DNA of 57,958 nucleotides from assembly GCA_051872655.1 (NCBI GenBank), contig JBJEEB010000006.1, positions 1-57,958 on the forward strand, in the 5' to 3' direction. The notes beneath the pieces were generated by a model. It ran no database searches, was not told where the DNA came from, and saw only the letters and a program-made list of their open reading frames with translations. This document shows, in pieces, positions 20,448 to 24,353 of the stretch. This stretch comes from Bacilli bacterium (GTDB lineage: Bacteria; Bacillota_I; Bacilli_A; RF39; UBA660). The position numbers and the translations under genes are program-made. Within the stretch, counting starts at the first letter, position 1, and each line of letters opens with the position of its first letter.

Positions 20448-20668
20448 TGTAAAGCGAAGAAAGAAAGAGTAATAGAAAGAGTATTTTAAAGAGAGTCTAT
20501 GATGGTGGAAATTAGATAAAGAAAAACTATTATGAATGGTTCTGGAGCAGTTATATCTAATAGGTATAAACGGTGGTTACGTTATAACTTAATGAGTGTA
20601 TTATTATAAAATAAGGTGGTACCGCGGATATTTATTCGTCCTTTTGTGTCCATCTTATTTTTTTATTA
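20448..20668 (+). promoter_or_regulatory. T-box riboswitch with Met (AUG) specifier
   Basis: Stem I AGAGA/GGTGGAA motifs, specifier GA-ATG-G-TTC (ATG 20536-20538), T-box AAGGTGGTACCGCG; promoter TTGAAA-N17-TAAAAT at 20413-20441. Confidence 0.9.
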
Positions 20669-20678
20669 GAGGTGTATT

Positions 20679-21164
20679 ATGAGAAAATTTGAGAGAATAA
20701 GTGAGAAAGAGTTTTTAAAAGATGTTTCAAATGCTAATTATGAAGATATATTATTACCTAAGAGAAGTACTAAAAATAGTGCTGGATATGATTTTTATTC
20801 TTTGTATGATATTACTATTAAACCTAATGAAATAGTAAAAATTCCTACTGGTATTAAAGTATGTATGAATGAAAATGAATTTCTAGGAATATTTATTCGT
20901 AGTAGTTTGGGATTTAAGTATAATATTCGGATGTGTAATCAAGTTGGTATAATAGATGCTGATTATTATAATAATAAAGATAATGAGGGTCATATTTTTG
21001 TATGTTTACAAAATGAGGGTGATAAAGATTTTGTAATTAATAAAGGTGATAGATTTGTTCAAGGTATATTTATGCCATTTTTAATAACTGATGATGATAG
21101 TACTACTAGTAAAAGAATTGGTGGTATTGGTAGTACAAATAAAGGAGAAGATAATAATGAATAA
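20679..21164 (+). CDS. dut: Trimeric dUTPase
   Basis: SAGYD, RSS, GIIDADY, QGIF, RIGGIGST motifs. Confidence 0.93.
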   Translation: MRKFERISEKEFLKDVSNANYEDILLPKRSTKNSAGYDFYSLYDITIKPNEIVKIPTGIKVCMNENEFLGIFIRSSLGFKYNIRMCNQVGIIDADYYNNKDNEGHIFVCLQNEGDKDFVINKGDRFVQGIFMPFLITDDDSTTSKRIGGIGSTNKGEDNNE

Positions 21165-22695
21165 TGATAAGAAATTTTATATTAGTACGGCAATCGCTTA
21201 CACTAGTTCAAAGCCACATATTGGTAATACTTATGAGATAGTACTAGCGGATGCTATTGCTAGGTATAAGAGATTAGAGGGGTATGATGTTTATTTTCAG
21301 ACTGGTACTGATGAACATGGTCAGAAGATAGAAGATAAGGCTAGAGAAGCTGGAGTTAGTCCACAGGAATATGTTGATAAAATAGCAGGAGAAATTAAGT
21401 CTATTTGGGATTTAATGGATACTAGTTACGATAGATTTGTTAGAACTACTGATAAGGAACATGAAGAAAAAGTGCAAAAAATATTTAAGAAGTTATATGA
21501 TCAAGGAGATATTTATAAAAGTGAGTATAAAGGACTATATTGTACACCATGTGAGTCATTTTGGACGGAGAGTCAGCTTGTAGATGGTAAATGTCCTGAC
21601 TGTGGTAGAGACGTTAATGAAGCAACTGAAGAAGCATATTTCCTTAGAACTAGTAAGTATTCTAAGTGGCTTGAAGACTATATTGAAAGTCATCCTAATT
21701 TTATTGAACCTGAATCAAGAAAGAATGAAATTATGAATAACTTTATTAAACCTGGTCTTCAGGATTTATGTGTATCTAGAACGTCGTTTAAGTGGGGGGT
21801 TCCAGTATCTTTTGATGATAAACATGTTATTTATGTATGGATAGATGCACTATCTAACTATATTACTTTTTTGGGGTATGATGTAGATGGTAATTACACT
21901 CCTGAATTCGAGAAGTATTGGCCTTGTAATGTGCATTTAATTGGTAAGGATATTCTTAGATTTCATACGATATACTGGCCAATTATGCTTCATCTACTTG
22001 ATTTACCTCTACCAGAGAAAATATTTGGACATCCATGGCTTTTATTTGGTAGTGATAAAATGAGCAAGAGTAAGGGAAATATTGTTTATGCTGATGATTT
22101 GGTTAATGAGTTTGGTGTCGATGCTGTTAGATTCTATATGTTACATGAGATTCCTTTTGCTTCAGATGGTAATTTTACTAGAGAACTGCTAATCGATTCT
22201 ATTAATGGTAATTTGGCTAATGTATTAGGTAATTTAGTTAATAGGACAATTGGTATGGCTAATAAGTATTTTGATGGTATTATTGAAAATAAGAATGTTA
22301 GTGAAGAAATTGATACTGAGTTTAAAGATTATATTATTAGTAGAAAGGCTGTCATTGATGAGAAGATGAATGATCTTAGGGTGGCTGATGCTTTAGAAGA
22401 AGTTATTAATATTTATAGAAGATGTAATAAATATATTGATGAAACTACTCCTTGGGTACTTGCAAAAGATGATAGTAAGAGAGATAGACTTGCAACAGTA
22501 ATTTATAATTTGGTAGAGGGAATTAGAATTGGTACGGTATTAGTTAGAGCATTTATGCCTTCAACTAGTGAGAAAATTTTCTATCAGATTAATACTGAGT
22601 TAAAAGATTTTGATAGTATCAAGAACTTTGGCGGATACGTTAGTGGTACTAAAGTTAATACTCCTGAAGTATTATTTCAAAGAATTGAGAACTAG
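21157..22695 (+). CDS. metG: Methionyl-tRNA synthetase (short form, no C-terminal tRNA-binding domain)
   Basis: PHIGN, GTDEHG, zinc knuckle, KMSKS; ATG 21157 after AGGAG overlaps the dut stop. Confidence 0.96.
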   Translation: MNNDKKFYISTAIAYTSSKPHIGNTYEIVLADAIARYKRLEGYDVYFQTGTDEHGQKIEDKAREAGVSPQEYVDKIAGEIKSIWDLMDTSYDRFVRTTDKEHEEKVQKIFKKLYDQGDIYKSEYKGLYCTPCESFWTESQLVDGKCPDCGRDVNEATEEAYFLRTSKYSKWLEDYIESHPNFIEPESRKNEIMNNFIKPGLQDLCVSRTSFKWGVPVSFDDKHVIYVWIDALSNYITFLGYDVDGNYTPEFEKYWPCNVHLIGKDILRFHTIYWPIMLHLLDLPLPEKIFGHPWLLFGSDKMSKSKGNIVYADDLVNEFGVDAVRFYMLHEIPFASDGNFTRELLIDSINGNLANVLGNLVNRTIGMANKYFDGIIENKNVSEEIDTEFKDYIISRKAVIDEKMNDLRVADALEEVINIYRRCNKYIDETTPWVLAKDDSKRDRLATVIYNLVEGIRIGTVLVRAFMPSTSEKIFYQINTELKDFDSIKNFGGYVSGTKVNTPEVLFQRIEN

Positions 22696-22713
22696 TAATT
22701 GGTTCTCTTTTTT
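22688..22713 (+). terminator. metG terminator
   Basis: GAGAACTAG-taa-TTGGTTCTC followed by a T-run. Confidence 0.7.
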
Positions 22714-22838
22714 GTATTGACAAATATAGATTATTTATAATATAATAATTTTCGATTTAGATGTTTTATATCTGCACTTTGGTCGTATAGATTTATGGCT
22801 ATATAGATTAATTAGTTTTATAGCGCGGAGGTATAAAT

Positions 22839-23213
22839 ATGAATAATAAAATTATGAAATATCTAAATCAAAATAAATCTTGTAGTTTTAGTAAACTTCT
22901 TTTTTCGTTTATCGATAAGAGAGGAATTACTGATTCAGAGGTTTATAAAAAAGCTTGTATAGATAGGAGATTATTTTCTAAAATTAGGTGTAATGAAAAT
23001 TACATACCTAAAAAAGATAATATAATTAAATTGTGTTTATCTTTATCTTTAAATAAAGAAGAGATAAATGTATTATTAAATAGTGCTGGGTATTCACTTA
23101 GTATGAATAATGATGTCGATTTGATTATATCTTTCTGTATAGAAAATAATATTTATGACATTAATGTTGTAAATGATTATCTATATACTTTTACTAACAC
23201 TGTCTTAAATTGA
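22839..23213 (+). CDS. XRE-like HTH protein
   Basis: FSKLLFSFID, VYKKACIDRRLFSKIR, LLNSAGYSLS, DLIISFCIEN; own TTGACA/TATAAT promoter and GGAGG RBS. Confidence 0.72.
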   Translation: MNNKIMKYLNQNKSCSFSKLLFSFIDKRGITDSEVYKKACIDRRLFSKIRCNENYIPKKDNIIKLCLSLSLNKEEINVLLNSAGYSLSMNNDVDLIISFCIENNIYDINVVNDYLYTFTNTVLN

Positions 23214-23225
23214 TGGTGTTTTTTT

Positions 23226-23242
23226 GTCACTTTTAAAGAGAC
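23226..23242. promoter_or_regulatory. Candidate operator upstream of the coiled-coil gene
   Basis: GTCAC-N7-GAGAC near-palindrome abutting the -35 position of a TATACT -10 box (23264-23269). Confidence 0.45.
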
Positions 23243-23304
23243 CAATTTATTCTACTTTTTAGGTATACTTTTAAGTGTGAAAGGAAATATTGGAGGTGTT
23301 ATAT

Positions 23305-23811
23305 ATGAAAATTAATATTTCAGGATTAATGAATATGATAGCGGAGGATGAAAGAAAATGTAGTTCTTTATCTAATTCTTTGAGAACGAAAGTTTATAGT
23401 GTTTCTATTCAAGAGTTAAATGGTACTGTAAATGTTATTGAAGACTATAAAGATGAATTTGACAAAGAGTTAGAAGAATACAGAAAGATTATGTCTAGAA
23501 TATCTAAACTTAAATCTATTTTGTATGAGAAGAATAATAGCTTTAAATTATCTGATGGTAGAACTATACAGACCGCTATTAACGATAATTCTAATTTGAG
23601 AAAGATGAAATTAACTTATGATAATATGTTAAGTTTCAGAAATATTAAAAGAAGGGTTACTGAAGTAAATAATTCTTATTTTGAATGTAAAACTGTTAAT
23701 TTTGATATTGATGAAATTAAGAATGAGTTAATAGTAATTGAATCTAAAATTCAGAATACTGACTTTGAAATATCTAAACTTAATTCTATTGAATTTGAAA
23801 TAGATATTTAA
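23305..23811 (+). CDS. Coiled-coil protein, DIP1984/DUF6847-like
   Basis: Helical; pattern KLKSILYEKN..DGRTIQTAI..FDIDEIK..IQNTDFEISKLN resembles the family; GGAGG RBS. Confidence 0.6.
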   Translation: MKINISGLMNMIAEDERKCSSLSNSLRTKVYSVSIQELNGTVNVIEDYKDEFDKELEEYRKIMSRISKLKSILYEKNNSFKLSDGRTIQTAINDNSNLRKMKLTYDNMLSFRNIKRRVTEVNNSYFECKTVNFDIDEIKNELIVIESKIQNTDFEISKLNSIEFEIDI

Positions 23812-23815
23812 AAAT

Positions 23816-24075
23816 ATTGGTCTTACTAAGTTATTTTGTAAGTTAAATGATGGTAACTGCTATCAGCCAATTGCTTTCTCTTATACTTGATATATTTATG
23901 AATGTTGATAGATTTGTGTTATGATTTATTACTTATTAGTTACTTTATTGTATCAATTTTTTTATTAGTTATAGTTTATTATTAAATTATATTATGGATA
24001 AGTGATTTAATTTTAAGTATAGGGAAAGTATGGAGAAGATATATCATATTTATGTATGATGTATCTTCTTTACTT
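23816..24075 (+). ncRNA. Candidate structured RNA / 3' UTR element
   Basis: Junction ATTGGT/GCCAAT enclosing two hairpins; long stem 23872-23890 with 24013-24030; TTATNNN repeats; terminal terminator hairpin. Confidence 0.5.
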
Positions 24076-24185
24076 TATTTATAAATTGTAAAGCATGCGT
24101 AAAATGTCTAAAAATAATATTTACTAATTTACTAAATTATGTTATATTTCTATTGTAGTACCTGCAGTGGAAAAGGAGAAAGAGC

Positions 24186-24353
24186 ATGCTTAGTACTAAG
24201 AGATGGAACTTTATGTTTAAGATATCATGTGGTATTTTAGCAGGTGTTTTGGTTTTCTTAATTTTTGTAGGTAGTAATTTTTTTGATTTATTATATCTTG
24301 GTATAATAATTATGTTTATTTTTAAATATTTAGTTGATAAAAAGTTAAAATAA
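24186..24353 (+). CDS. Small 55-aa membrane protein (absent from the ORF track)
   Basis: AAGGAG RBS; MLSTKRWNFMFKISCGILAGVLVFLIFVGSNFFDLLYLGIIIMFIFKYLVDKKLK; promoter TTTACT-N17-TATATT with TG extension at 24120-24148. Confidence 0.7.
   Translation: MLSTKRWNFMFKISCGILAGVLVFLIFVGSNFFDLLYLGIIIMFIFKYLVDKKLK

Follow-up and report, generated by a model that had tools for sequence, protein, structure and literature searches.

A large structured RNA joined to the gene of a DUF6847-fold protein in an accessory cassette of a Bacilli bacterium, with copies in related bacteria and phages

In several bacterial systems a structured RNA is found in the company of a protein. With OLE RNA and OapA, as with bacterial Y RNA and Rsr, the gene for the structured RNA adjoins that of the partner protein; in Y RNAs the 5' and 3' ends pair into a long stem that closes the molecule, and their genes lie near those of RNA ligases. 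Type III toxin-antitoxin (TA) systems such as ToxIN are compact cassettes of a protein and a structured RNA, patchy in their occurrence and also present on phages. For the DIP1984/DUF6847 protein family, which has a solved structure from Corynebacterium diphtheriae (PDB 3KDQ), the literature under its names describes neither a function nor an RNA partner, and the sole family-related mention found under DIP1984, DUF6847 or 3KDQ is a passing one in a plasmid survey, the papers that matched 3KDQ being unrelated. Here we describe a cassette of about 1.37 kb between metG and tatD in a 57,958-nucleotide (nt) stretch of Bacilli bacterium DNA (GenBank assembly GCA_051872655.1, contig JBJEEB010000006.1; hereafter the window). 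Two things make up its invariant core, the gene of a 168-amino-acid (aa) DUF6847-fold protein and, fused to that gene, a new kind of large structured RNA; a regulator gene and its operator are a frequent add-on.

Compared with OLE/OapA and Y RNA/Rsr, the proteins and the RNA sequences are unrelated, and the cassette RNA is fused to the mRNA of its protein. The phage copies described below end tRNA arrays that also hold skipping-rope RNAs, which brings to mind GOLLD, ROOL and skipping-rope, large RNAs of phage tRNA islands with no assigned function; however, the cassette RNA is smaller than ROOL (about 270-330 nt, where ROOL RNAs average 581 nt) and, unlike all three of those RNAs, it is strictly tied to one protein gene.

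The tail behind this gene is a real structured RNA. It comprises 271 nt of non-coding sequence after the stop codon, ending in an intrinsic terminator and with no terminator between the stop codon and the RNA, which bears out an earlier reading of the same DNA (the initial annotation) in which a structured non-coding stretch followed a coiled-coil gene and led into a terminator. The whole tail folds at -66.4 kcal/mol on the + strand (z -5.9; 0 of 200 shuffled sequences as good), against only -28.6 kcal/mol (z -1.9) on the - strand. No open reading frame (ORF) of 30 aa or more was found on either strand of positions 23812-24138, and three other roles for the stretch were considered and rejected. 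Readthrough of the stop codon would meet the next in-frame stop only 5 codons on; the 25- and 15-codon frames in the window's RNA, compared by eye as candidates for a small conserved ORF, lack start codons in the relatives; and the RNA is not a 5' leader or riboswitch of a downstream gene, since it ends in a terminator and what comes next is a different gene from locus to locus, in some cases a convergent one such as the penicillin-binding-protein gene of same-genus relatives.

Close behind the stop codon lies the head of the RNA, a three-way junction of helices P1, P2 and P3 (Table 1) whose invariant features are the loop word AAGUUAUU and the junction UAAAU. A collection of 114 loci with the 168-aa gene was gathered; the locus search ran on a closer, 9-sequence alignment (A3), the 38-sequence alignment A2 having no block conserved enough for the purpose. 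The sequence anchors of the motif occur in all 111 of these loci with at least 110 nt available downstream, the UAAAU anchor lying 24-55 nt past the stop codon and at 32 nt in 72 of the 111. Among the 50 distinct versions of the head, obvious compensatory changes are seen, for example in P2 (CUUAC/GUAAG, CUCCU/AGGAG, CUUGU/ACAAG and UUCAU/AUGAA). A gapless MAFFT alignment of 37 versions served as seed; L033, whose P2 loop differs, and 12 versions in which P1 and P2 are separated by one additional base were left out as misplaced by MAFFT. In this seed 88.7% of the cells are paired, against 72.5% after shuffling, and double changes occur at 13 of 16 pairs; the covariation score is 0.55, compared with 0.24 for shuffled alignments (0 of 500 reach the real value) and at most 0.14 with the partners slid. 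The covariance model built from the seed, R1, matches all 53 representative loci, including the 13 versions kept out of it, and the conserved structure downstream of homologues on which the initial annotation depended is thus found in each of them. The alignment of these 53 matches, which was fitted to R1 and is biased towards its structure, has 91.0% of cells paired (71.7% shuffled), with covariation at all five pairs of P2 and all five of P3, and RNAalifold returns the same three helices. A U-G pair conserved in 50 of 51 rows, other conserved G-U pairs and the far better fold of the + strand together place the RNA on that strand.

Behind the head, the RNA continues as a body in which a long closing helix surrounds an AT-rich interior. 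The helix was recovered by RNAduplex in 37 of 37 diverse loci (-14.5 to -25.5 kcal/mol), joining the 15-30 nt right after the head to a segment 120-210 nt further on, with the terminator next in most loci; its strands are unrelated in sequence between lineages. When the 5' strand was shuffled 100 times with dinucleotides preserved, the median z over 32 loci (three more were dropped for short tails) was -3.55, with no shuffle as good as the real helix in 19 of the 32 and with L014 (13/100) and L033 (7/100) the weakest. Minimum-free-energy (MFE) folds of 15 loci agree on the head, the long closing helix and the variable AT-rich interior. Words of the form TTACRRTT (UUACARUU in the RNA) recur in the interiors at 0.94 per sequence, against 0.056 in shuffled ones. 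Tandem Repeats Finder gave 0 rows for the RNA at a minimum score of 30. Searches of Rfam 15 found no match to the RNA of the window, or to those of 8 bacterial loci, at E <= 1, and nothing over the RNA in 5 phage loci at E <= 0.1; for the Clostridioides difficile copy described below, a search at E <= 10 gave only weak rows on the terminator region (E >= 0.046, below the gathering score).

The protein had been called DIP1984-like in the initial annotation from pattern resemblance, and the call holds. Its own sequence falls short of the cut-offs of both curated models, PF20935 (DUF6847; E 4.3e-5, 23.9 bits against 27) and NF038048 (DIP1984 family; E 6e-6, 26.5 bits against 70), but PF20935 is matched at E <= 0.01 by 27 of 38 diverse full-length homologues, drawn from an exhaustive search that gave 109 clusters at 50% identity, and a profile of the homologues matches 3KDQ itself (E 6.8e-6). 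The AlphaFold model, with a predicted local distance difference test score (pLDDT) of 97.3, consists of two helix, beta-hairpin, helix repeats. It was aligned to 3KDQ by Foldseek (E 9.7e-5, template-modelling (TM) scores 0.66/0.71) and by VIA (Z 12.7, root-mean-square deviation (rmsd) 3.6 A, 150/152 residues aligned), so that the fold is shared over nearly the whole length at 17% sequence identity. 3KDQ is the sole clear structural match: the next row from VIA is a generic helical hairpin with Z 8.9, and below 3KDQ the remote fold search with VIA-align gave only hairpins of this sort. We read the protein as a distant subfamily of the DIP1984/DUF6847 superfamily. PADLOC has no match to it at E <= 0.001 (best E 0.0087), and PHROGs gives it no name.

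Gene and RNA keep company wherever either is found in this subfamily. In the window's 1.36 Mb genome R1 has a single match, at 23811-23872 (E 2e-16), and in 60 relatives it has 8 strong ones, each directly 3' of the gene; three weak matches in relatives (E 2e-4 to 2e-3) were taken as false, the two that were checked having no family gene nearby. Every strong match is accompanied by the gene, and the subfamily loci with enough downstream sequence all have the RNA. Occurrence is sparse, a member of the 168-aa family being present in 8 of 399 genomes of the class. A direct protein search of phage and plasmid collections matched nothing among the phages, but did match one record of C. difficile that is listed as a plasmid (NC_017177.1, L134). 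The homologue there, 35% identical to the window's protein, is followed by a tail of about 300 nt that has a terminator and a closing helix (z -4.0) and in which TTACAA words occur.

Homologues with 33-53% identity are also encoded on 17 viral contigs, most of them 100-120 kb long. The R1 head is present on one of the 17. The phage genes carry a tail of about 300 nt, with a closing helix in 10 of 10 distinct tails tested (z -2.3 to -8.2); the word TACAATTT occurs in all 10, and TTACRRTT is found 1.3 times per sequence, against 0.07 after shuffling. In all seven phage loci examined, the gene stands between a tRNA array, with as many as 15 tRNAs, and genes for dUTPase and RNA ligase that follow it; skipping-rope RNAs were present in the four arrays scanned with Rfam, and in three loci a winged-helix gene stands directly upstream of the phage gene. 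A looser DNA pattern for the junction gave at least 119 matches over viral contigs, of which 80 loci were fetched; just 2 of the 80 were marginal matches to R1 (E 0.002 and 0.007), and the matches to the loose pattern are accordingly taken as chance in AT-rich DNA.

The phage loci offered some observations of their own. An array tRNA in L143 (1821-1902), labelled tRNA-Pyl by ARAGORN, has the anticodon CTA, which reads TAG; 7 of the 17 phage copies of the gene stop at TAG, and TAG may be a sense codon in part of these phages' genomes. In L152 (4510-4660) the usual tail is replaced by a tRNA-like sequence whose start resembles a D-arm and whose end, about 140 nt away, resembles a T-arm; ARAGORN did not call this sequence, which may represent a tRNA that has been interrupted. 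A conserved protein of about 150 aa that has no Pfam match (L140, 3188-3664; L151, 3403-3873; and homologues) is encoded between tRNA array and gene in the phage loci examined. Upstream of the C. difficile homologue (L134, 2340-2490) lie some 140 nt with two hairpins resembling tRNA T-arms (GGGTTCGATTCC-like and GGGTTCAAATCCC-like), all enclosed by a GC-rich outer stem; ARAGORN called no tRNA there and Rfam gave two chance-level rows (E > 2). Similar T-arm-like hairpins stand just 5' of the gene in phage loci.

Distant members from other Firmicute families were considered as well. The covariance-model search found no R1 head in L128-L133. In a set termed class B (L128-L132, L137 and L138), 220-530 nt of non-coding sequence follow the gene, for which the automated test gave no support for a closing helix (z -1.0 to +1.3). 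By eye, and tentatively, the class B tails share the words UUCC after the stop, AUGUUAGGU, AAAAACUU and GAAGUAGG, and have short, covarying complementary closing segments of 8-18 bp that differ between loci.

Upstream of the gene, the initial annotation had pointed to a palindrome beside a promoter with a good -10 element and no -35, and both were confirmed. There is no good -35 at the right distance from the TATACT element, the sole alternative in the promoter scan being TTGTCA-18-TATTCT (9/12); relatives have TGnTATAAT (an extended -10) or TATAAT at the same position. The -10 element lies about 20 nt past the palindrome, which puts the centre of the palindrome at about -41 from the start of transcription predicted from the sequence, and with the poor -35 this makes "activator geometry" a fair description. 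The pattern GTCNC-N7-GNGAC has a single match in the window, where 0.01 would be expected by chance, and in the genome the form extended by the trailing C has one match, a lone copy that is unremarkable in itself because the reversed control pattern occurs twice. In the family GTC-N-C and G-N-GAC are constant, with a variable fourth position (GTCGC/GCGAC, GTCTC/GAGAC or mixed), and the palindrome is 51-56 nt from the ATG in most loci; the distance is 62 nt in the window and reaches 69 nt in loci with a divergent regulator gene.

The linkage of the palindrome to the regulator gene, which the initial annotation had also proposed, was surveyed in 61 distinct upstream regions from the 114 loci, each offering 500 nt or more of sequence. 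Forty-four of the 46 regions with the regulator have the palindrome, the other two both carrying a degenerate copy, compared with 5 of the 15 regions in which the regulator was not detected; the remaining 10 have neither. A putative palindromic operator thus stands by the promoter that it would control and co-occurs with the gene, as in the XRE family of regulators. It is retained in L034 and L035, where the regulator gene is divergent, so that it is not simply the terminator of that gene. The 15 loci in which protein and RNA are present with no regulator gene detected mark the regulator as optional, and protein plus RNA as the part that does not vary. We propose that the XRE-type protein would bind the palindrome as a dimer at about -41 and gate transcription, class II-like activation being somewhat more likely than repression.

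The regulator itself is an XRE-like gene with its own promoter, matching the consensus at every position, and its own terminator, just as had been annotated. Its best Pfam match, HTH_26, is weak (E 0.026; 15.2 bits, where the cut-off is 22), no helix-turn-helix (HTH) family reaching its cut-off (HTH_19, 11.3 bits against 30.2), and the best PDB match of the regulator profile is to an XRE-type domain (E 0.021). When the AlphaFold model (pLDDT 89.4) was compared for the five-helix HTH fold, almost all of the top Foldseek rows are XRE-type proteins (ClgR, C.AhdI, C.Esp1396I, SinR and CapH), with target TM scores of 0.7-0.83, an rmsd of 2-3 A and a probability of 1.00, but with weak E values of 0.07-0.6. 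It is the N-terminal 65 residues or so that superpose on SinR and on the restriction-modification controller (C) proteins C.AhdI and C.Esp1396I; the cassette regulator differs from these in its additional C-terminal part and its operator sequence. With the C proteins and SinR, the cassette shares a palindromic operator over the -35 region and a small regulator gene directly upstream. C proteins activate as well as repress from such sites. The search gave 712 homologues of the regulator; among the 120 matches listed none is named (three are "hypothetical protein") and none has a Pfam domain. In PHROGs only its C-terminal part is matched, by phrog_4031, a group of no assigned function.

These parts together are best read as an autonomous accessory operon that occupies differing chromosomal sites in related genomes. 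The local gene order is T-box leader, dUTPase gene, metG, cassette, a 55-aa membrane ORF and tatD. Alignment with relatives sets the edges of the cassette, which spans its first promoter through its last terminator: homology ends just past the metG terminator and its T run on the left and picks up some 10-15 nt past the final terminator on the right. In 10 of 10 same-genus genomes examined the cassette is missing from this site, where metG and tatD are immediate neighbours or have just a small 55-aa ORF between them. The "self-contained module" of the initial annotation is therefore literally true, as a discrete insertion, and every element it listed is present where it had placed it. Five of these same-genus genomes have a homologous gene pair elsewhere (57-58% and 67-68% identity), which in the two loci that were read, L003 and L005, lies between prmC and the convergent penicillin-binding-protein gene. 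The ORF list shows no recombinase or replication gene within the cassette. TTGTA occurs at both edges (22709-22718 and 24083-24092), which could be a target duplication or chance in AT-rich DNA.

Around the insertion, the T-box leader scores 97.2 bits, above the gathering score, and precedes the dUTPase gene (region 20448-21164); the latter overlaps the start of metG and so appears to be part of a T-box-controlled metG operon. In the phage loci, too, a dUTPase of this type comes immediately behind the protein-RNA pair. The 55-aa hydrophobic ORF upstream of tatD is kept in 5 of the 10 same-genus relatives (34-66% identity) and is, from this conservation, probably a real small membrane protein of the core genome, outside the cassette. 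In metagenome loci, neighbours recognised from their translations include a YefM/YoeB-like pair (L039 and L040, 2432-2948), a Cas12a-like N-terminus (L113, 1-1237) and DNA methyltransferase-like genes (L127, 2401-3498), which hints at variable, defence-rich regions.

Table 1. Positions of the cassette and of flanking features in the window
Feature	Position	Strand	Remarks
T-box leader	20448-20646		precedes the dUTPase gene
metG terminator	22687-22707		from the terminator scan
Cassette	~22714 to ~24090		edges from alignment with relatives
Regulator promoter	22717-22746	+	TTGACA-18-TATAAT; 12/12 consensus positions
Regulator gene (124 aa)	22839-23213	+	N-terminal XRE-type helix-turn-helix and ~50-aa helical C-terminal part
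Regulator terminator	23196-23225	+	intrinsic; 23196-23220 in the terminator scan; 9-pair stem, then T run
Palindrome GTCAC-N7-GAGAC	23226-23242 (23243 with trailing C)		family consensus GTCNC-N7-GNGACC
-10 element TATACT	23264-23269	+	21 nt past the palindrome; read from sequence
Ribosome-binding site GGAGG	23292-23296	+	precedes the 168-aa ORF
168-aa helical protein gene	23305-23811 (from ATG)	+	DIP1984/DUF6847 fold
Three-way-junction motif (head)	23816-23871	+	~56 nt
P1	23816-23821 with 23866-23871	+
P2	23822-23826 with 23838-23842	+	conserved 11-nt loop UAAGUUAUUUU at 23827-23837
Junction UUAAAU	23843-23848	+
P3	23849-23853 with 23860-23864	+
RNA body	23872-24030	+	closing helix around ~120 nt of AT-rich interior
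Closing helix	23872-23890 with 24013-24030	+	from RNAduplex and MFE folds
Degenerate family word TTATAGTTTAT	23969-23979	+	in the RNA interior
RNA terminator	24031-24082	+	intrinsic; 19-pair hairpin 24031-24072, then T-rich tail
55-aa membrane ORF	24186-24353		upstream of tatD

What the pairing is for can be considered along several lines. The one we favor, at an even chance of being right, is that protein and RNA are a working pair made from one transcript. The protein would have the RNA domain as its working partner, whether the two form a ribonucleoprotein or the RNA holds or controls the protein, with the conserved loop, the junction and the interior words as the sites of contact; being made in cis, the two would appear together and in fixed proportion. 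The position of the phage copies, at the ends of tRNA and small-RNA islands and beside dUTPase and RNA ligase genes, suggests a role in phage-host conflict over RNA or translation rather than in housekeeping. Taking this further, it is possible, if on balance doubtful, that the DUF6847 protein and its tail of about 270-330 nt make up an unrecognised ribonucleoprotein of small-genome gut Firmicutes and their 100-120 kb phages, which sits in the phage tRNA/RNA-repair island and acts on tRNA, translation or RNA damage in that conflict.

A number of points weigh against such a partnership. The protein is mildly acidic, with an isoelectric point (pI) of 5.4 and a median of 5.3 over 38 homologues, and it has no recognised RNA-binding domain. 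The exact TTACRRTT word is absent from the window's own RNA. The loci are related to one another, so that the shuffle statistics overstate their independence, and the phages are mutually related members of one clade, which makes their synteny amount to about one observation. As for transcription, RNA-library contigs were found for the regulator gene in two runs of one study and for the protein gene in one run, and a contig of a relative that extends from the gene's 3' end into the head motif is weak evidence in favor of the pair; these contigs leave the RNA body of this strain uncovered and give neither ends nor strand.

Finally, gene and RNA are adjacent, so that their perfect linkage and parallel divergence would be equally expected if the tail were purely a cis-acting 3' untranslated region (UTR), with no role in trans and no protein contact, whose task is to protect the mRNA from 3' exonucleases or to adjust how the upstream ORF is terminated, degraded or translated. 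Such a role would suit an RNA that lies within the transcription unit, between stop codon and terminator, and is never separated from its gene, as well as an acidic protein that has no domain for binding RNA. However, some 270-330 nt with a covarying junction, invariant nucleotides and recurring words exceed what protection from exonucleases needs, and these features are common to bacteria and phages though the proteins share just 33-53% identity; we know of no bacterial 3' UTR of comparable complexity, and think it rather unlikely that the tail is only this.

A toxin held by a repeat-containing RNA had been suggested in the initial annotation by analogy with type III TA systems, and here it went astray. 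The order of the two elements is reversed, the RNA lying downstream and co-transcribed with no terminator between it and the protein gene instead of upstream behind one; there is no tandem repeat array; and neither Pfam nor PADLOC gives a match to a ToxN/AbiQ-type endoribonuclease, the fold being that of 3KDQ. The cassette is not a member of type III TA. A pair with similar logic from outside that family, in which the RNA would neutralise a harmful protein in a toxin-antitoxin-like or abortive-infection role, is a separate matter: the cassette is small and self-contained, with its own regulator and differing sites in relatives, it is patchy (8 of 60 relatives and 8 of 399 class genomes), it has phage copies, and some of its neighbours come from variable regions (the YefM/YoeB-like pair and the Cas12a-like N-terminus noted above from translations). 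The downstream position of the RNA, the lack of repeats and the lack of a nuclease-like fold or family tell against this as well, and a regulator-less gene that always has the RNA, as in the 15 loci, is compatible with it but non-specific; we consider it improbable. That the tail acts as DNA, as a single-strand origin, a recombination site or iterons folding when single-stranded, is very improbable, for despite the AT-rich region with its recurring short words and promoter-like hexamers, and the insertion with TTGTA at both junctions, the fold is strongly strand-specific with conserved G-U pairs, sits exactly between stop codon and intrinsic terminator, and comes behind the same gene every time, in chromosomes as in phage genomes of 100-120 kb, in a cassette that has no recombinase or replication gene.

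If the pair is indeed a ribonucleoprotein that acts in phage-host conflict, this would be the first function for the whole DIP1984/DUF6847 family, and the ornate RNAs of bacteria would gain a new class that has its own protein partner. Large bacterial RNAs with strong covariation are rare and have repeatedly opened new biology, as with riboswitches, OLE and the cage-forming GOLLD and ROOL. This one lies outside Rfam and comes with a handle, in that it is always fused to the gene of a small protein family with a solved structure, and the pairing has been kept from bacterial chromosomes to phage tRNA islands. With the protein, the RNA and often the regulator and its operator together on a single 1.4-kb piece of DNA, the role of the DIP1984/DUF6847 family is now directly testable.

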